Part shown: in pieces, positions 10,503 to 63,131 of the stretch
How the letters are laid out: every line of letters starts with the position of its first letter
Position numbering within the stretch: position 1 is the stretch's first letter
From: a bacterium
Lineage (GTDB): Bacteria; Patescibacteriota; Saccharimonadia; CAILAD01; JADZBC01
Direction of reading: 5' to 3'
DNA length: 64,000 nt
NCBI GenBank assembly: GCA_020852295.1
Contig: JADZBC010000009.1
Span: 104,628 to 168,627, forward strand
Position numbers and translations under genes: made by a program
The notes under the pieces: generated by a model
What the model saw: the letters and a program-made list of their open reading frames with translations, nothing else
Told to the model about the DNA's origin: nothing
Databases searched by the model: none

Positions 10503-10578
10503 GGGCCTGTAGCTCAGTGGTTAGAGCAGGCGGCTCATAACCGCTTGGTCGTTGGTTCGATCCCAACCAGGCCCACCA
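10503..10578 (+). tRNA. tRNA with CAT anticodon, most similar to tRNA-Ile2 (lysidine, k2CAU)
   Basis: 76-nt cloverleaf with anticodon loop cuCAUaa. Acceptor C4-G69/C5-G68. Anticodon arm is near-identical to E. coli ileX. Confidence 0.75.
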
Positions 10579-18158: not shown

Positions 18159-18234
18159 CGCGGGGTAGAGCAATTGGCAGCTCGTCGGGCTCATAACCCG
18201 GAGGTTGCAGGTTCGAGTCCTGCCCCCGCCACCA
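18159..18234 (+). tRNA. initiator tRNA-fMet (CAT)
   Basis: C1-C72 mismatch. Three G-C pairs closing the anticodon stem (tcGGGcuCAUaaCCCgg). Near-identical to E. coli metZ. Confidence 0.9.
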
Positions 18235-20344: not shown

Positions 20345-20421
20345 GGCTGCGTAGCTCAGTTGGTTAGAGCGCGGGACTCATAAGCCTGAGGTCGGAGGTT
20401 CAATTCCTCCCGCAGCCACCA
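20345..20421 (+). tRNA. elongator tRNA-Met (CAT)
   Basis: 77-nt cloverleaf. Acceptor and D-arm ggctgcgtagctcagttggttagagc resemble E. coli metT. Anticodon loop cuCAUaa. Confidence 0.8.
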
Positions 20422-53012: not shown

Positions 53013-54287
53013 ATGGAAGAGCTTAATAGCTGGCAGAAGAAAGCAAGACGATTTCTTAGACGACTTGGTCCTGGTCTCGTAACCGGTGCAGCCGACGACG
53101 ATCCGTCGGGTATAGGTACTTATTCGCAGACCGGTGCGCAATATGGTTTTAAGCTCAACTGGAGCATGCTCTTTATGCTGCCCCTTATGGTATCTGTCCA
53201 GGAGATGGCTGGACGAGTTGGGCTTGTCACCGGCAAGGGCTTGGCTCGAATCATCAAAGACCACTACAACATCTGGATTCTTTATCTGATGGTGTTCTTT
53301 TTGGTCTTCGCAAACGTGGTCAATATCGGTGCTGATATTGGGGCAATGGCGGCTTCAGCTCAGCTTCTCATACCCTTGCCGTTTGTTTTTTGGACACTAT
53401 TCTTCACGATAGGCATTGTGATCCTAGAGATAGTTATTCCGTATAAGCAGTATGCCAAGATACTCAAGTGGCTGACACTATCACTGTTTGCATACATCAT
53501 CACCGCTGCAATTGTGCAGATGCCGTGGGGCGAAGTGTTGCATAATATGGTGGTGCCACACATTCAGCTGACTCCCGAGTATATTGTTCTGTTTGTTGCG
53601 TTGCTTGGTACAACTATCTCGCCATATCTCTTCTTCTGGGAGCCAAGCCAGGAGGTTGAGGAGGAGATCGAGCATCGTTGGCTCAAAAAGTCTGGTGGCG
53701 AACCTCAGGTAACTGCTCATCGTCTGGCACGCTTCCGACAAGACAACGCGATTGGTATGGTTTTTTCGCAAATCGTTGCTTTTTTCATCATGATTGTCGC
53801 TGCAGCCACTCTCAATAAAAATGGTATTGTCGATATCGCTTCGGCCGATCAAGCGGCCAAAGCACTTGAGCCGTTGGCGGGTGAGTTTGCGAAGGTGATT
53901 TTTGCGGTTGGAGTAATTGGAACAGGGCTACTTGCCATTCCGGTTTTAGCTGGGTCGGCCGCCTATGCATTGAGTGAGGCGCTTGATATCAAGGAGGGTC
54001 TTTATCAGAAAGTACACCGAGCGAGAGGTTTTTACGCCATCATCGCTGGCGCAACGATATCTGGACTTCTCATCAACTTCGTCGGAATTGACCCAATCAA
54101 GGCACTGGTCTATGCGGCGGTCATCAATGGTGTTCTGGCAGTTCCGCTGATCTTTATGATTATTCGTATTAGCAACAACCCCGATGTAATGGGCGACTAC
54201 AAGAGCGGTCGACTGGTGAACTTCTTTGGGGTAATCGCTCTTATTACAATGGCACTCGCCAGTCTGGCGATGATTTTTATTCGCTAG
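53013..54287 (+). CDS. mntH: NRAMP-family divalent metal (Mn2+/Fe2+) transporter
   Basis: GPGLVTGAADDDPSGIGTYSQTGAQYGF motif and 11 TM segments. Confidence 0.85.
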   Translation: MEELNSWQKKARRFLRRLGPGLVTGAADDDPSGIGTYSQTGAQYGFKLNWSMLFMLPLMVSVQEMAGRVGLVTGKGLARIIKDHYNIWILYLMVFFLVFANVVNIGADIGAMAASAQLLIPLPFVFWTLFFTIGIVILEIVIPYKQYAKILKWLTLSLFAYIITAAIVQMPWGEVLHNMVVPHIQLTPEYIVLFVALLGTTISPYLFFWEPSQEVEEEIEHRWLKKSGGEPQVTAHRLARFRQDNAIGMVFSQIVAFFIMIVAAATLNKNGIVDIASADQAAKALEPLAGEFAKVIFAVGVIGTGLLAIPVLAGSAAYALSEALDIKEGLYQKVHRARGFYAIIAGATISGLLINFVGIDPIKALVYAAVINGVLAVPLIFMIIRISNNPDVMGDYKSGRLVNFFGVIALITMALASLAMIFIR

Positions 54288-56406: not shown

Positions 56407-56901
56407 CTACTTTATTTTTCGAGACTTCTCGCTCAAGAAAGTGTCGAGCACGCAGAGCACAAAGAAGTAAACTCCCGAGGCCAAGATGGCGTGGTCGAGG
56501 TCAAATAGATACAGACTGAGCCCAGCTATTACATAGAGACTCGCTACCGAAAGGTAGTATTTTTTTTGCTCAAGCCAGCCGGTCAGAACATAGCCGCCGG
56601 CACACATGTAGAACCAGCCATGCAGCATACCAGTGAGCAGTCGGAATATTCCGGAGTATTCGAGATAGGTTAAGATACTGCCCCCAACGACAATGCTGAT
56701 CCATAGCCACTGGATCCAGCGATCCGTTTTTGTGCGCGTGCCGCCGAGTAGATATTGGACCATGATGCCGACCAGGCCGACACTGAGCCAGCTTGCGAGT
56801 AGCCAACCGGGGCTATCGAGATAATAAAAGCTGGTAAGGTAACCAGCCAAAATCAATACGCCCCATACGATCATGATCTTTTGATAGAGGCGCTTTTGCA
56901 T
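56407..56901 (-). CDS. hypothetical polytopic membrane protein
   Basis: Five TM segments. Confidence 0.4.
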   Translation of the reverse strand: MQKRLYQKIMIVWGVLILAGYLTSFYYLDSPGWLLASWLSVGLVGIMVQYLLGGTRTKTDRWIQWLWISIVVGGSILTYLEYSGIFRLLTGMLHGWFYMCAGGYVLTGWLEQKKYYLSVASLYVIAGLSLYLFDLDHAILASGVYFFVLCVLDTFLSEKSRKIK

Positions 56902-56984
56902 GCCGACATTATAGCATAAGTATTATTTTTCACCTGTTGTGATCTGTGCTAGTATTATGGCAATAATAACTGTTAGGAGACATC

Positions 56985-57362
56985 ATGAAGTTAAATATCA
57001 AATCTAACCTTGCCCGCACCGGGATGGTGGCATCTATGGCAGCCCTACCAGCGGCTCGTGCTTTAGCAGCATATGACGACTACTCAAGTTCAAATGCAGC
57101 ATCGGGCGCTGCGGCCGCAGGCTTTCTTGGTCTCTTTGGTGCGTTCTTCTTCGTGATTATTGCTGTGGCGATTGCATCTTTTGTATTTTGGCTACTGATG
57201 CTCATTGACGCAATCAATCGAACGAACTGGGAAGACGATAATCAGAAAAACACCTGGCTGATTATTTTAGTCGTTTCATTTTTCTTCGGCGCTTCACTGA
57301 TTGCAGCTGCTGTGTACTACTTCACCGTCAAAAAGAAACTCGGTACGCCTAAGAAGAAATAG
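56985..57362 (+). CDS. hypothetical membrane protein
   Basis: Ala-rich N-terminus, 2 TM, basic tail. Confidence 0.4.
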   Translation: MKLNIKSNLARTGMVASMAALPAARALAAYDDYSSSNAASGAAAAGFLGLFGAFFFVIIAVAIASFVFWLLMLIDAINRTNWEDDNQKNTWLIILVVSFFFGASLIAAAVYYFTVKKKLGTPKKK

Positions 57363-57409
57363 TCATTGCCTGATCAAATACAAAAGGCCGGGTTTGACCC
57401 GGTCTTTTG

Positions 57410-58786
57410 TTATCGCCAGCTCGGTAGCCAGAAATGCATATTGTAGTAGTCGAGGCTGACTGGGTAGCCGTAGGTGAGTGGTGAGAAAAAGAGATAAGAA
57501 GCGCAAGCGAGTCCAAGTAGGACATTGAAGTAGGTGTTGCGCTTTTGTCGCGGTAATTTGTCGATCAAATACATCAAGATAAGGATTGAAAAGACAAGTG
57601 CTGTCAGATAGTGATAGAGGAACATGACTCGTTTTATCTGTATGAATGGCAAGAGGTTGATGATGTAGGCAAAGTAAAGAATCTCAAGCTGCCCAGTAAT
57701 TTTGACGCGCTTCGTTAGGAGGCCAATAACGCCTAGCACCACTGCAGCCAGGGCCGCATACCAGATGACAGGGTTGCCGAGGAGATAGATATTCTCAACC
57801 CGCGGATCTGACTTATCCGTGCCTTCCCAGTAGTAGACACCTCGCTGCATGAGCGGCCAACTGTACCACTTGCTGCCATAGGGGTGGGAGTCGCCGCCGA
57901 TACCAGTGTTTGACTGGTACATAACACGGTTAAGCTCAATGAACTTTTCGAACTGGCTGGCGGTTTTGAGGTCTGCCACACTTCCATATTTGTTGCCCTC
58001 AAGTGTGCGTTGAAATTCCTGTGACATATAGTCGTCGCCCGGGCCAGATTTTGTGAGCAATGAGAAATGCACCATAAAGACCGAAACGTAGAGTAGGATC
58101 GGTGGAATCATATAGAGAAAGATGCGCAAGATAGTTTTGCCTTGAGGCCACCACTTGCGCTTACCCCAGTGTGCAATCAGCTCATAAACGAGCGGAATCA
58201 TTAGGAAGGTGAGTCCGGTCCATTTTATCGAGGCGGCCGCACCGCCCAGCAGTCCCGATGCGACAAAGAAGAGGATATTTTTATTGCGCCGATACAGTAG
58301 ATAGAGCAGTAGTGAGAGAAATCCAAATAGCAGCAAAAAGCTATCGAGCAAAATGAATCGGGATTGTACGATCAAGGCGTTTTCTAGAGAGACAAGTAGA
58401 CCAGTAGCGGTGGCGGCCCGGAGGCTAAAGCCAAGCTCGATTGCCAAGAAGAAGAGTACGAGGGGGAGCAGTGTGCCGGCCAAGGAGGGCAAAAACCGGA
58501 GTATCATGTAGCCGTTGTCGGCGTATTGCGCACCAATTTTTTCAAACTCGGAGGTTGGTACGTAGCCAGCAGCTTTTGCAAAACCGGTGATGAGCAGCTT
58601 GCCGAGTGGCGGATGGATATCGAAATAGTATTGATTATTGTAGTAGCTTGATACGAACTTACCGAAGTAAACCTCATCGAAAACTGCTTCTTTTGGAGTA
58701 CCAAAAAACGCAAAGTGCGTAACGAGGCTAACAATCAAAACTGCTAGAGCAGCAAATACCTTAGGTCGTTTCTTTACGAATTCCAT
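57410..58786 (-). CDS. GT39/PMT-family protein O-mannosyltransferase-like glycosyltransferase
   Basis: N-terminal DE-containing loop (AVFDEVYFGKF) and HPPLGK motif. Multiple TM segments. Confidence 0.7.
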   Translation of the reverse strand: MEFVKKRPKVFAALAVLIVSLVTHFAFFGTPKEAVFDEVYFGKFVSSYYNNQYYFDIHPPLGKLLITGFAKAAGYVPTSEFEKIGAQYADNGYMILRFLPSLAGTLLPLVLFFLAIELGFSLRAATATGLLVSLENALIVQSRFILLDSFLLLFGFLSLLLYLLYRRNKNILFFVASGLLGGAAASIKWTGLTFLMIPLVYELIAHWGKRKWWPQGKTILRIFLYMIPPILLYVSVFMVHFSLLTKSGPGDDYMSQEFQRTLEGNKYGSVADLKTASQFEKFIELNRVMYQSNTGIGGDSHPYGSKWYSWPLMQRGVYYWEGTDKSDPRVENIYLLGNPVIWYAALAAVVLGVIGLLTKRVKITGQLEILYFAYIINLLPFIQIKRVMFLYHYLTALVFSILILMYLIDKLPRQKRNTYFNVLLGLACASYLFFSPLTYGYPVSLDYYNMHFWLPSWR

Positions 58787-58809
58787 TATTGCTCATCATA
58801 CCATAGCTT

Positions 58810-60178
58810 GTGGTATGGGTGCTGCAGGGGATACAATTGTACATAAGTACTATGAACGTATCTCCGTACATCCAGAAAAAACTCGGCTGGCCAATGATTA
58901 TTGGTGCTGCCTTTGTGGTGCCCACAATACTGTGGCTAACCATACACCCGGTCGGTGACGTGGTGAGTTCATGGACGAGCTTAGCCTATGGGCTCGGCAG
59001 GTTATTTGGCATATGGGGTGTTTGTCTGTATGCCATCAATCTAGTAATGTCTGCTCGTTGGCGTTGGCTTGAGCCATGGTTTGGAGGGCTCAATCGTGTC
59101 TACATTGCCCATCACACGACCGGTGGCATAGCGCTGGTCTTGCTGCTCTTTCATCCTGTTTTTCTGGCATTACAAAAACTAGCTATCTCCGCCTTCACTG
59201 CGGCCCGCTTCTTGTTGCCTGGCTATAGTTTTGCGACTGATCTTGGTTTAATCGCATTGTTTGGGATGGTCTTCTTGCTCTTTCTTACTTTTTACACCAA
59301 GCTCCCATATGAGATTTGGAAATTCAGCCACAAATTCCTAGGAGTTTTCTTTGGTGTGAGCGGGCTTCACATCCTACTGATTGAATCAGGTGACATGGAG
59401 AGCTCAATCTTACTCAAAGCCTACGTACTTGCCATTATGGCAGCAGGGGCATTTGCCTATACTTATCGAACATTGCTACCAAAAATATTTTGTTCGAACC
59501 TACGAGTATGAGGTGGAGGGGGTCCGCCAGCCATGGAAAGAGGTGATTGAGATGACACTCAAGCCCAAGAATCAGCTCATGAACTTCCAGCCTGGTCAGT
59601 TCGTGTTTGTGTCGTTTACTGATTCGCAATTGGTAGCGCGGGAATCACATCCATTTTCGATTGTGTCTGCTCCAAAGGATGGGCGGCTCATTTTGACAGC
59701 CAAGACGCTCGGCGACTACACGGCCAGCCTGATCAAACTTAAGTCGGGTACAACTGCCAAGATCGAGGGTGCTTTTGGTAAGTTCTCCTACATCAATTTT
59801 AAAAACAATGACCAGATATAGATCGCGGGTGGTATCGGAATCACGCCATTTGTCTCAATGGCGCGCTCACTCGAGATGACGCCAGACTGCAAGGTCGATA
59901 TGTTTTATAGCTGCAAAACAGAGCCAGAGCTGATCTACCTCGATGTCATACGTCAAACTGTCGAAACACACAACAAAAACTTCCGGATTTTCCCCTGGAC
60001 AGCCGATAAGATGGGCATGATTACCGCTGACAAGATCAAGCAAAAAGTTGGCGATGTTAAGGGTAAAGACATCTTTTTGTGTGGACCACCACCAATGATG
60101 AAGGCACTCCGTGAGCAGTTTATCAAGCTGGGTGTGCCAAATGACCATATTCATAGTGAGGAGTTTTCAACCAAATGA
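58810..60178 (+). pseudogene. ferric-reductase-like flavocytochrome (TM heme domain + FAD-binding + NAD-binding) disrupted by a frameshift near 59490 and an in-frame TAG at 59819
   Basis: Three consecutive ORFs encode the TM His domain, the FAD domain (HPFSIVSAP) and the NAD domain (IAGGIGITP). Frame 1 to frame 2 switch at an AAAAATATTTT run. TAG directly before GGIGITP. Confidence 0.6.
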
Positions 60179-60918
60179 AAATCAAGCTCAACACCAGGTT
60201 CTTTACTACGGTCGGCTTTGTACTTGCTCTCGTCATCGCGCTTCTCGTCATCGCGATAGGCTTACTTGGCTCCACGCGAGGGGTGCCCAATTGGCAAATC
60301 TTGCTCAACAAATGGAAGGGCGTCGCCACAACTTACCGTACCGGACCAACCGGTAGCGAGAGCTCAGATGCGACTACTTCGCTGGATACAACCGACCCGA
60401 CGATAGATGGCAGTAACGGCGACACAAGCCCAGACCAATCTACACCAAACAACGGCGGTGGCGGTACCGATACCAATACGCCCGGTAGTGGTGGCTCTGG
60501 AGGTAGAGGATCGGCCACCCCAAAGCCGAGTAGCTCTACAACTACTCCACCGTCATCGGGTGGGGGTGCGAGTACGCCAAAGCCAACGGGCAACTCGACT
60601 CCACAACCAACGCCTGCGCCAACTCCAACGCCGACCCCTGCACCAGCTTGCTCGGCCGGAGGATCGTGTACGGCAGCGCAGGTTGCTACCCACAACACTC
60701 AGGGCAATTGCTGGGTGATCTATGGATCGAAAGTTTATAATGTGACTGGTTACGTTGGGCAACACCCCCCTGGACCAAGCTATTTCAACTCATCTGTTTG
60801 CGGTAAAGACGTATCAAGTTTTCTCGGCGGCAGCTCATCGGTCAATGGCAACCGACATCGTCACTCCAACAGTGCTTATTCGATTCTCAATAGCTATTGG
60901 TATGCAAATCTCATATAA
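60175..60918 (+). CDS. membrane-anchored Ser/Thr/Pro-rich protein with C-terminal cytochrome b5-like heme-binding domain
   Basis: N-terminal TM. Low-complexity linker. HNTQGNCWVIYGSKVYNVTGYVGQHPPGPS resembles the cyt b5 motif (HxxxxDCWxxIxGxVYDVTxFxxxHPGG). Confidence 0.55.
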   Translation: MKIKLNTRFFTTVGFVLALVIALLVIAIGLLGSTRGVPNWQILLNKWKGVATTYRTGPTGSESSDATTSLDTTDPTIDGSNGDTSPDQSTPNNGGGGTDTNTPGSGGSGGRGSATPKPSSSTTTPPSSGGGASTPKPTGNSTPQPTPAPTPTPTPAPACSAGGSCTAAQVATHNTQGNCWVIYGSKVYNVTGYVGQHPPGPSYFNSSVCGKDVSSFLGGSSSVNGNRHRHSNSAYSILNSYWYANLI

Positions 60919-60938
60919 TTTGTAAAAGGAATTTCACA

Positions 60939-61505
60939 ATGCCCGCCACTCCACTACAACCACAAAAACAACATAGCTCTCAAAAGCTTCAGCTCTTTGT
61001 TATGATGGCGCTTTTTGCAGGTATTGGCGTAGGAGCAGTCGGTATGGGGTTGGCTGGTAATTCTCGTCAGCCTGTTGGCGTGAGTCCAAGTATGCAGCCG
61101 CGCCGCGACGCTGTCTCTGAAGTAAAAAAGGTCGGTGAGATGATCGAAGTCGACAATGTTAGTTTTGGAGTTGATGCAGTCAATCTCAATCAGGCGGCCG
61201 ATGCTGTTTACAAACCAAACCCGGGGAATCGTTTCGTAGTGGTCAGTGTCACGATAGCTAATAAAACTACCCAACAGCGACCGGTCGTTCCGGTAACTCA
61301 GGTGTATTTGAAGGATCAGGACGGTAATACATATTTTATGTCGCCGGCACCCATGAAAAATCCGATTGCTGCTGGCAACTTGCTTGCCGGAGACAATCTC
61401 AAAGGGCAGCTTTCATTTGAGGTGCCAGACTCGGTCAAGCAGCTAAAACTGTATTTTGATCCCGGCTGGAACAACGTCTCGCCATTCGTGGTTGGACTGA
61501 ATTAG
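60939..61505 (+). CDS. DUF4352-like secreted/membrane-anchored protein
   Basis: TM, then Ig-like domain with the GNRFVVVSVTIANKT pattern. Start uncertain. Confidence 0.5.
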   Translation: MPATPLQPQKQHSSQKLQLFVMMALFAGIGVGAVGMGLAGNSRQPVGVSPSMQPRRDAVSEVKKVGEMIEVDNVSFGVDAVNLNQAADAVYKPNPGNRFVVVSVTIANKTTQQRPVVPVTQVYLKDQDGNTYFMSPAPMKNPIAAGNLLAGDNLKGQLSFEVPDSVKQLKLYFDPGWNNVSPFVVGLN

Positions 61506-62635
61506 ATACTAATGGTGCGCTCGAGGATTGCATCAACCTCGACGTGCTTATTCTTGAGTAATTGACGAGCTTGATCCTGTTTTTCGGTAATTGCGCGTTC
61601 GAGATTTTGTAGCCCATCGGCTCTCGCCGCTCCATTACCATGAACTACTTCGCGCAGATTACTAATGCCGAACTTGCGTGCGTAAGACTCGGCAAAGATC
61701 ACGCTTAGGTGGTCAACAATTGTGTCTCGGTCGCGGTTAGGAAAATCCTCAAGCGTTACTTCAATTGAGCTCTCAATTTTTTTTAGTAGGCGCGGCAGGG
61801 TGGCGATCGCAAGCTCTGTTGGGTTTTCAAATTTTTGTAATTCCGGCTTGACAACATACCGGTCAATTAGCTGGTGAATATGTTCACGATCAAGCTGGTA
61901 TGTACGTGCAAGTAGCTCGTGATCAGTTGCGGCACGGAGATTTGTTTCGACTGTTGCATTGTGCTTCTCAAATTTATCGACAAACTGTACTTCGAGCTGT
62001 GGAACCAAAAAGCTGATGCCACCATAGTTAACTGATTCTGCAGTATCATGCAGAAGGGTCTCTGGTAGTCCGTGCAGCCCTTTTGTGGCGGTTACGGGAT
62101 AGATTTCCTGCGAACCAAATACTGCACGAAACCTTTCGGAATGTGGAATAGCCATGTAGTCGTCTGTACTCACCGCGTAAATTTCAAAGTCGCTGTGCGT
62201 CCGGTAGTCTGGGCTCTCTTGAGTTTTGGTTCGCCCGACTACTTCGCCCTGGAGTGCTAGCTCGGCGCCAACACCTTTGCCAAACAGATAGTAAGTTGTG
62301 CCATCCTCGCCCTGTTGAGGCATAAGCGCTCGAGCCAAAATGACCTTTGTTGTAAAGGTATCAATGTCGTTCATCTCAATACCATCAGTAAAGGTTTCTT
62401 CTCGCCAGCGGTGTAGAGCATTGAGCTGGGTGGGTGTTGGTTCTTGAGTAAAGTTGCCAGATTCATCAAGCTGCAGTTCAAACTGATTGCGCAGAAAGTC
62501 GAGCGAGCGCTTCACGCGGCGCTCTACTTCGCTGTTCTGCGCAAGTGCTTCACGAGCATCGTCGTTCTCTACCGGACTCGTGAATGTGTCTTTGCTGTCG
62601 TCTTGTGGATTAAGCTGGTCCGATGGTTGATCCAA
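61502..62635 (-). CDS. hypothetical protein (about 375 aa), start uncertain
   Basis: Long ORF. The listed N-terminus reads through tRNA-Pro, so the start is trimmed to a possible TTG at 62635. No domain recognised. Confidence 0.4.
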   Translation of the reverse strand: MDQPSDQLNPQDDSKDTFTSPVENDDAREALAQNSEVERRVKRSLDFLRNQFELQLDESGNFTQEPTPTQLNALHRWREETFTDGIEMNDIDTFTTKVILARALMPQQGEDGTTYYLFGKGVGAELALQGEVVGRTKTQESPDYRTHSDFEIYAVSTDDYMAIPHSERFRAVFGSQEIYPVTATKGLHGLPETLLHDTAESVNYGGISFLVPQLEVQFVDKFEKHNATVETNLRAATDHELLARTYQLDREHIHQLIDRYVVKPELQKFENPTELAIATLPRLLKKIESSIEVTLEDFPNRDRDTIVDHLSVIFAESYARKFGISNLREVVHGNGAARADGLQNLERAITEKQDQARQLLKNKHVEVDAILERTISI

Positions 62636-62647
62636 GTTATTACCTTT

Positions 62648-62724
62648 CTGGTCGGGGTGGCCGGACTTGAACCGACGACCTCGTCGTCCCGAACGACGCG
62701 CGCTAGCCAGCTGCGCCACACCCC
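62648..62724 (-). tRNA. tRNA-Pro (CGG)
   Basis: Anticodon loop uuCGGga, G37, CCA encoded. Confidence 0.9.
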
Positions 62725-62737
62725 GGCGATCAATTCG

Positions 62738-63054: not shown

Positions 63055-63131
63055 TGGTCGGGGTGAAAGGACTCGAACCTTCGACCTCGCGGTCCCAAAC
63101 CGCGCGCGCTAGCCAGCTGCGCCACACCCCG
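63055..63131 (-). tRNA. tRNA-Pro (TGG)
   Basis: Anticodon loop uuUGGga. Acceptor and D-arm identical to the CGG isoacceptor. Confidence 0.9.

Follow-up and report, generated by a model that had tools for sequence, protein, structure and literature searches.

The stretch of DNA analyzed here (the window) is 64,000 nucleotides (nt) long and comes from a bacterium of the lineage Patescibacteriota; Saccharimonadia (contig JADZBC010000009.1 of assembly GCA_020852295.1, positions 104,628 to 168,627 of the forward strand); all positions given below without a contig name are those of the window. At 58852 to 60178 on the forward strand lies a gene for a flavocytochrome of the Streptococcus pneumoniae NOX (SpNOX) type, or putative ferric reductase (pFre), which has 441 codons when repaired. 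In the window, the gene is broken by a frameshift and an in-frame TAG, and it overlaps an intact gene for a cytochrome b5 domain protein. From the results described below, the reductase gene is very probably a recent and genuine pseudogene that is still segregating in the population and that stands first in a dispensable reductase/cytochrome b5 cassette of the candidate phyla radiation (CPR).

Three open reading frames (ORFs), all on the forward strand, cover the broken gene. The first, in frame 1, starts with the ATG at 58852 (a GTG lies upstream at 58810), ends at 59511, and encodes a product of 219 amino acids (aa) (MCC7289084.1). The second, in frame 2, spans 59381 to 59821 and ends at the TAG. 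The third, in the same frame as the second, spans 59858 to 60178 and encodes 106 aa (MCC7289086.1). The NCBI annotation (locus tags IT414_) lists the three pieces as separate proteins, MCC7289084, MCC7289085, and MCC7289086. The part of the gene read in frame 2, from 59489 to 59818, corresponds to the FAD-binding subdomain, and the part from 59822 to 60178 corresponds to the rest of the NAD(P)H-binding subdomain.

The frameshift is at codon 213/214, where a run of four Ts (59485 to 59488) has one base more than the ancestral run of three. The context of the run is CCAAAAATATTTTGTTCG; with one T removed it becomes LLPKIFVRTYEYEVEG, which agrees with every orthologue, and an outgroup contig (L005) reads CCAAAAATATTTGTA at this site, with three Ts. 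Around the site, frame 1 gives LLPKIFCSNLRV and then a stop (in another rendering of the ORF, TYRTLLPKIFCSNLRV and a stop) and frame 2 gives YFVRTYEYEVEG (or YFVRTYEYEVEGVRQ), while all aligned orthologues and relatives read PKIFVRTYEY across it. The second frame continues to FKNNDQI-stop-IAGGIGITPF, the stop being the TAG at 59819 to 59821, two codons 5' of the GGIGITP motif (59828 to 59848) and in the same frame. Alignment of homologues and comparison of contigs showed that the TAG takes the place of Trp323. The context of this residue is QIWIAGGIGITP; all 119 of the 119 homologues have Trp here, and the outgroup codon is TGG. SpNOX likewise carries the Trp (QVWIAGGIGITPF). Outgroup, invariant Trp323, and SpNOX together point to TTT and TGG as the ancestral state of the two sites. 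The original prediction, made from the sequence and its translated ORFs, had placed a switch from frame 1 to frame 2 near 59490 and a TAG directly ahead of GGIGITP in the frame of the downstream ORF. The extra T accounts for the former, and translation bore out the latter.

For further analysis the gene was repaired by deleting one T from 59485 to 59488 and by reading the TAG as a sense codon, which gave a protein of 441 residues. Three Pfam domains follow one another in it: Ferric_reduct (PF01794, residues 52 to 168, E value 6.8e-10), FAD_binding_8 (PF08022, residues 229 to 297, 2.3e-12), and NAD_binding_1 (PF00175, residues 323 to 420, 2.9e-15). A public protein search returned an intact orthologue of 441 aa (P0001) that is 83% identical over its full length, and hundreds of relatives of 420 to 470 aa with the same three domains at 43% to 58% identity. 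The named relatives come from Saccharimonadales and other CPR bacteria. Given the ordered Pfam matches and the 83%-identical intact orthologue, the observation of a broken gene is far beyond chance. The orthologues with 83%, 58%, and 55% identity are all single ORFs.

The closest solved structures are those of SpNOX (8qq7, 8qta, and 8qt6), which align with residues 52 to 431 at an E value of about 2e-33 and cover both the membrane and the dehydrogenase domains. Thus, the closest characterized relative is SpNOX and not YedZ, and the three ORFs do rebuild the oxidoreductase with transmembrane heme, FAD, and NAD(P) domains that had been proposed. The alignment with the dehydrogenase-only construct of SpNOX (8qq5) begins at about residue 211 of the repaired protein, and so the break at codon 213/214 falls at the junction of membrane and dehydrogenase domains. 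The dehydrogenase domain also matches cytochrome b5 reductases, with E values from 3e-9 to 1e-3.

Published filters for bacterial NOX sequences comprise the motif H[PSA]F[TS][LIMV], two His-x12/14-His pairs in transmembrane helices, 3 to 7 such helices, and a membrane domain and a dehydrogenase domain in one continuous polypeptide (PMC5676040). The repaired protein passes these sequence filters. The codons for the putative heme-ligand histidines are at 59110 to 59112 (H87), 59113 to 59115 (H88), 59152 to 59154 (H101), 59329 to 59331 (H160), and 59368 to 59370 (H173). Among 120 sequences, these residues vary little or not at all, and they form the conserved pairs H87-x13-H101 (or H88-x12-H101) and H160-x12-H173. 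A simple hydropathy scan gave five clear hydrophobic segments. The FAD motif is HPFSI (residues 266 to 270, 59648 to 59662), in which H266, P267, and F268 do not vary across the family. GIGITP (residues 327 to 332, 59831 to 59848) is 3' of the TAG and cannot be translated here as part of the enzyme. What the gene in the window does not encode is the single continuous polypeptide, owing to the frameshift and the TAG. We conclude that it is a member of the bacterial NOX family by descent, yet this copy is a pseudogene.

To see whether the lesions are real, we fetched the contigs of the 11 distinct sequences that cluster with the window's pieces at 90% protein identity. A base-by-base comparison with the window covered 11 contigs of other assemblies, which are 99.7% to 99.96% identical to it. 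These are SPAdes, MEGAHIT, or Logan assemblies from five or more accession series, with several alleles present together in the same series. The source samples are SRR6837555, SRR6837569, SRR6837583, and SRR26835473, and those of the assemblies ERZ17987222, ERZ17987696, ERZ17988280, ERZ27282915, ERZ27283013, ERZ27296359, and ERZ3756521; no literature turned up for the run, assembly, or protein accessions. At 59485 to 59488, the window and five contigs (L009 to L013) have TTTT and six contigs (L001 to L004, L007, and L008) have TTT. At codon 59819 to 59821, TAG is found in the window and in seven contigs (L001 to L004, L010, L011, and L013), CGG (Arg) in three (L007, L008, and L012), and TGG (Trp) in one (L009). 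Five combinations of alleles occur among these 12 sequences, namely TTT/TAG, TTTT/TAG, TTT/CGG, TTTT/CGG, and TTTT/TGG, although strain mixtures can give rise to consensus contigs that are mosaics. The undamaged combination TTT/TGG, which is the state of the outgroup, was not found among them, and the 11 distinct sequences of the 90%-identity cluster include no full-length sequence bearing the Trp. The second-best protein match (P0002, 308 aa, about 100% identical) keeps its frame across the T run and is terminated by the same stop. The lesions are therefore polymorphic in natural populations, and none of the sampled contigs has an unimpaired allele. The third allele at codon 323, Trp to Arg, is probably damaging too; this reading, and the loss of activity that we infer for it, are based on conservation of the residue.

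One further change in the reductase, Thr314 to Ile at 59793 (ACC to ATC), is private to the window and absent from all 11 other contigs; about half of the family members have Thr at position 314. Classified by effect, the polymorphisms gave one synonymous and two ordinary missense changes within the gene, and those in the flanks are mostly missense as well. A diversity-generating retroelement was considered as the source of the variation in codon 323 and was rejected by reasoning alone: only two adjacent bases vary, and there is no adenine-templated tract.

These comparisons bear on one alternative, that a homopolymer miscall and a base error have split a truly intact ORF. The frameshift does sit in a short homopolymer, and six related contigs have the in-frame TTT. 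Against this, five other contigs share the TTTT and seven share the TAG, across SPAdes, MEGAHIT, and Logan assemblies, which makes a sequencing error very unlikely. Moreover, only two substitutions and two indels of one base each separate the window from its relative L001 over 10.6 kb, and the intact version at the second indel is that of the window; thus, the assembly of the window is not error prone. We regard an artifact as highly improbable, and both lesions as genuine mutations. The original prediction, that this is a real pseudogene and not a sequencing error, therefore held. It had named the restoration of a single ORF as the outcome that would speak against it, and on this point the result was mixed: the in-frame TTT is indeed present in some contigs, most of which have the TAG nonetheless.

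Programmed recoding could in principle yield a full-length enzyme from this sequence, by a +1 frameshift on UUU_U followed by readthrough or reassignment of UAG. The tRNA-Phe could re-pair on UUU U in the +1 frame, and a distant relative (L018) has an in-frame TAG too. However, neither site is conserved: the 83%-, 58%-, and 55%-identical orthologues and 79 of 81 distant loci have single ORFs, both sites are polymorphic within the species, and orthologues and outgroups have TTT and TGG. TAG is also the commonest ordinary stop in the window, used by 29 of 69 long ORFs, including dnaK, and no suppressor with a CUA anticodon is present among the window's nine tRNAs. Stop usage and tRNA content lead us to reject a reassignment of TAG, and the TAG of the distant relative is at a different codon, Met336. 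Recoding of any kind at this locus is scarcely credible.

Two of the 81 distant loci have broken reductase genes, each at a different place. L018 (1 to 1944) has a tandem pair of paralogues, the second of which carries the in-frame TAG at Met336 (FLS-stop-ARS); we had considered whether this stop was at the same Trp codon as the TAG in the window and rejected the idea, as the two are unrelated. L037 (283 to 1595) has a reductase relative with a frameshift near residue 130.

The gene that follows the reductase, at 60175 to 60918 on the forward strand, is intact and encodes a cytochrome b5 domain protein (PF00173 at 1e-11, residues 166 to 221). Its ATG overlaps the reductase stop by 4 nt (ATGA), both here and in the outgroup, and a GAGGAG lies 12 nt upstream. 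The protein has one hydrophobic segment (residues 13 to 31), a stretch of about 130 residues rich in Ser, Thr, Pro, and Gly, and a C-terminal cytochrome b5 domain (about 60664 to 60915) that would have bis-His heme ligation. The domain aligns with the heme domains of bis-His cytochromes b5 and of Scs7; in the alignment with Scs7 (4zr0), the axial histidines are kept, HPPG and HRHSNSAY corresponding to HPGG and HEHSDSAY, and both His positions are conserved across the family of such partners. The b5 gene is identical in every contig of the near-identical set that covers it. The neighbor is thus what had been predicted, an intact gene for a membrane anchor, a Ser/Thr/Pro-rich linker, and a cytochrome b5-like domain. 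Promoter and terminator sites, scanned for between 58600 and 61800, were no more numerous, or fewer, than in shuffled sequence and did not define an operon.

We surveyed the pairing of the two genes in 80 metagenome loci that encode reductase relatives, of which 68 had at least 600 nt of downstream sequence. In 31 of these 68, the reductase is followed directly by an ORF on the same strand that has a b5 domain; in 4 more, such an ORF is found elsewhere in the locus. The downstream partners have one to three b5 domains, in which the HPGG and HS positions are conserved, as is a pair of cysteines. Such a Cys pair is not known from canonical cytochrome b5. The pair and the N-terminal anchor together suggest that the b5 domain is extracytoplasmic. 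Some partners (in L038, L067/L069, L044, L045, and L019) have two or three b5 domains in tandem, and nearly all of the domains share the Cys pair (xCW ... CG).

Colocalization of putative ferric reductase and cytochrome b5 domain genes in CPR genomes has been described, with the function left open (10.1101/2021.11.17.468889). In that study, 185 of 1,427 CPR genomes had a PF01794 gene with a b5 gene within 10 kb, and no such pairing was seen outside the CPR. The locus in the window has a PF01794 and a PF00173 gene well within this distance, adjacent and overlapping by 4 nt, in a CPR genome. The assignment to the Saccharibacteria is based on DnaK, whose best named matches, 83% to 85% identical, are from Candidatus Saccharibacteria; a scan of species-representative genomes gave nothing but an unrelated cyanobacterial match of the FNR type. 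The locus differs from the clusters on which the preprint centered in several ways. Those had a Tyr-ligated, MAPR-like b5 (cytb5MY) and an adjacent two-component system; here, the b5 domain appears to be of the conventional bis-His type (HPPG...HS), no two-component system is present among the genes scanned at 56407 to 62719, a part of the window, and the reductase is a pseudogene.

The likeness to SpNOX suggests what the pair might do where the reductase is intact. SpNOX, too, is a single chain in which a six-helix heme-b membrane domain precedes FAD and NAD(P)H subdomains (PDB 8QQ7, 8QTA, and 8QT6; PMC5676040, PMC11564096, PMC11031084), and HPFS, QxWIAGGIGITPF, and the His pairs are common to both. 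According to its cryo-EM study, the physiological acceptor of SpNOX may be something other than O2, and a protein acceptor may exist (PMC11564096). The outer heme is reported to be highly exposed and cytochrome c to be reduced directly (PMC11564096), which makes a protein acceptor plausible. In intact relatives, electrons would pass from cytoplasmic NAD(P)H to FAD, then cross the membrane via two bis-His hemes, inner and outer, and from the outer heme would most likely go to the co-transcribed, membrane-tethered, extracytoplasmic cytochrome b5, which would hand them on to a further, final acceptor. This path, and the location of the b5 domain on the outside, go beyond the domain content of the proteins and are what we infer from it. 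The similarity to SpNOX is only remote in sequence; the copy in the window is broken, and the CPR family has a dedicated downstream b5 gene, none being reported for SpNOX in PMC5676040, PMC11564096, or PMC11031084. Eukaryotic NADH-cytochrome b5 reductase likewise pairs a flavoprotein of the FNR type with a bis-His cytochrome b5. That system acts on one side of the membrane, whereas here two transmembrane hemes would first carry the electron across; also, the b5 domains of the CPR family have the conserved Cys pair.

The reductase and b5 genes belong to a variable cassette at 58800 to 62648. Its third gene (60939 to 61505, forward strand) encodes a DUF4352 protein (PF11611 at 6e-17) with an N-terminal hydrophobic segment and is intact in the window. 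At 61402 to 61404 the window has GGG, giving 188 aa; three contigs of the near-identical set (L001, L010, and L011) have GG, which gives a frameshifted C terminus and 168 aa. The 188-aa form matches the C terminus of the outgroup protein (187 aa), and the 168-aa form was found on 11 contigs. The fourth member is an ORF of 405 aa on the reverse strand (61502 to 62719) with no match in Pfam or PHROGs; a PHROGs scan of the cassette genes was uninformative. The longest reading of this ORF overlaps the tRNA-Pro gene at the edge of the cassette, and NCBI calls a 377-aa version.

The boundaries of the cassette emerged from comparison with a sister lineage (L094). To the left of the reductase is a divergent gene similar to those for protein O-mannosyltransferases (PMT; 57410 to 58786, reverse strand; PF02366 at 1.7e-44 and PF16192 at 5e-39), and to the right, at 62649 to 62725 on the reverse strand, is a tRNA-Pro (CGG) gene, placed by a tRNA scan and by the comparison with the sister lineage. 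Nucleotide identity between the window and L094 (6000 to 7461) falls from about 97% to about 60% at about 58800 and returns to 96.5% from 62648, so that the break points are the start of the PMT gene and the tRNA-Pro (CGG) gene. Amino acid identity is 98.6% for an Nramp protein, 98.7% for PMT, and 97.6% for DUF5652, versus 54.7% for the reductase, which is intact in the sister lineage. There, the cytochrome b5 gene is cut down to a 46-aa ORF for the membrane anchor, and the DUF4352 and 405-aa genes are absent. The outgroup, which is more distant (72.7% identity in PMT), keeps the reductase (83.4%), b5, and DUF4352 genes in the same order. The 405-aa ORF is absent from L094, L005, and L098. Because the sister lineage has swapped or lost genes that the more distant outgroup keeps in order, we consider the cassette to be a hotspot in this genus at which genes are replaced, deleted, or inactivated. 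The frameshifted DUF4352 gene of most other contigs and the missing b5 domain of the sister lineage also agree with the earlier description of the locus as a decaying module.

Both lesions destroy the dehydrogenase arm of the reductase, the insertion of the fourth T where the membrane domain joins the dehydrogenase domain and the change from TGG to TAG at the invariant Trp, two residues ahead of the glycine-rich NAD(P)H loop. Translation that stops at the TAG leaves the NAD(P)H subdomain without its first strand and its glycine-rich loop. GGIGITP precedes the start of the called 106-aa ORF (59858), and hence the NAD(P)H site cannot form. The 219-aa product, on the other hand, retains the whole heme-b membrane domain, followed by a tail of 6 out-of-frame residues. 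All three changes (frameshift, TAG, and Trp to Arg) are in the dehydrogenase arm and spare the membrane domain, but with three events the sparing of the N-terminal half has a chance probability of about 0.14 and is not significant.

Because the membrane domain is spared, we considered whether the break is a functional fission, in which the 219-aa protein, resembling MsrQ (YedZ), still feeds cytochrome b5 from another cytoplasmic donor. In E. coli, Fre serves as the partner of MsrQ, and with the TTTT/TGG allele the donor could similarly be a separately translated dehydrogenase domain; the one contig with this allele (L009) encodes a complete dehydrogenase ORF of 241 aa (P0129). MsrQ is a heme-b membrane protein with a ferric reductase domain that passes electrons to an extracytoplasmic protein, MsrP (PMC11564096), and its stand-alone membrane domain resembles the 219-aa frameshift product. 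The dehydrogenase domain of SpNOX acts by itself as a flavin reductase (PMC11031084), and short stand-alone proteins of the ferric reductase domain are a known bacterial class (PMC3591440). The 219-aa product keeps all four or five of the heme histidines and all of the membrane segments, the three independent changes leave that domain untouched, and the b5 gene is invariant and has its own ribosome-binding site (GAGGAG). However, the dehydrogenase piece in the window is additionally cut by the TAG, and its separate translation would lack a convincing start or ribosome-binding site, the AGGGG being just 3 to 4 nt upstream of the called TTG. The N-terminal sparing is not significant, as noted, and the DUF4352 frameshifts and the loss of b5 in relatives fit plain decay. 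MsrQ differs, too, in that the ancestral gene here was the fused three-domain form and the partner is a cytochrome b5; no gene for an MsrP-like molybdoenzyme was found among the neighbors scanned. On balance, we think that a functional fission is improbable.

A more serious alternative is that the gene is not simply decaying but is repeatedly switched off by selection, through a contingency-like or adaptive loss in which the NAD(P)H arm is costly, for example by way of reactive oxygen, and knockouts are maintained beside other alleles. Three disabling or probably disabling changes lie within about 1.3 kb in genomes whose divergence is otherwise about 1 site per kb, and two of them affect adjacent bases of one invariant Trp codon. 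There are five allele combinations, with all four gametes for the pairs tested, the same alleles recur across several sequencing projects, and no wild-type allele is on record. Also, the sister lineage, whose flanking proteins are about 98% identical, has a reductase allele that is only 55% identical. Three changes, two of them in one codon, and the lack of a wild type on record are a hint of selection. But the tracts of classical phase variation are far longer than T3/T4, strain mixtures can yield consensus contigs that mimic recombinants, the sample is 12 contigs, and two changes in one codon have a post hoc probability of only about 0.03. Recurrent loss driven by selection is a tentative explanation that we consider possible but not probable. 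Its strongest form would make the locus an on/off or modular switch instead of a dying gene, with the route from NAD(P)H to the outside repeatedly selected against or rewired in an episymbiont and the 219-aa protein and b5 forming a two-part, MsrQ-like relay. Such a switch seems unlikely to us; if it were real, it would single out cytochrome b5 as the protein acceptor long sought for the bacterial NOX homologues.

Several points weigh against our preferred interpretation, that of a recent pseudogene in a dispensable cassette. As only assembled contigs were compared, the combination of TTTT, TAG, and the T at 59793 in the window could be the consensus of co-occurring strains. Several of the comparison contigs have, by their names, only 2- to 6-fold coverage, some perhaps come from related samples of one project and would not be fully independent, and the TGG allele is in a single contig. 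The polymorphisms are too few for a dN/dS test of relaxed selection. The reductase and b5 genes are adjacent in fewer than half of the informative loci (31 of 68), and the undamaged 219-aa membrane domain might keep a function. Even so, the alternative lesions and the turnover of the neighboring genes lead us to the view that this is a dispensable, variable cassette caught in the middle of gene loss.

The gene family, its pairing with cytochrome b5, and pseudogenes as such were already known. This broken member is new, as is its population picture, with alternative lesions, a Trp-to-Arg allele, and turnover of the cassette. The event is of an ordinary kind, with an unusually clear population signal. 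It illustrates that near-identical contigs from other public assemblies can tell real lesions from assembly errors without recourse to reads. The locus also supplies natural knockout and missense alleles of a CPR-specific reductase/b5 module, which could be correlated with habitat or host, and the conserved, translationally overlapped b5 gene is a concrete and testable candidate acceptor for the bacterial NOX homologues.

A few features around the cassette deserve mention. The PMT gene stands divergently beside it in the window, and this adjacency is kept in L005 and L094 and not in distant loci; the linker of the b5 protein, being rich in Ser, Thr, and Pro, may be O-glycosylated. About 4.5 kb upstream of the reductase, at 53013 to 54287 on the forward strand, is a gene for an Nramp-type divalent-metal transporter (the Pfam call is from the equivalent gene in L010 and L094), which could conceivably be connected with Fe(II) uptake. 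At the right edge of the cassette, two tRNA-Pro genes (62649 to 62725 and 63055 to 63131) flank the DUF5652 gene. Elsewhere in the window, three tRNA-Met (CAT) genes lie within 10 kb of one another, at 10503 to 10578, 18159 to 18234, and 20345 to 20421.

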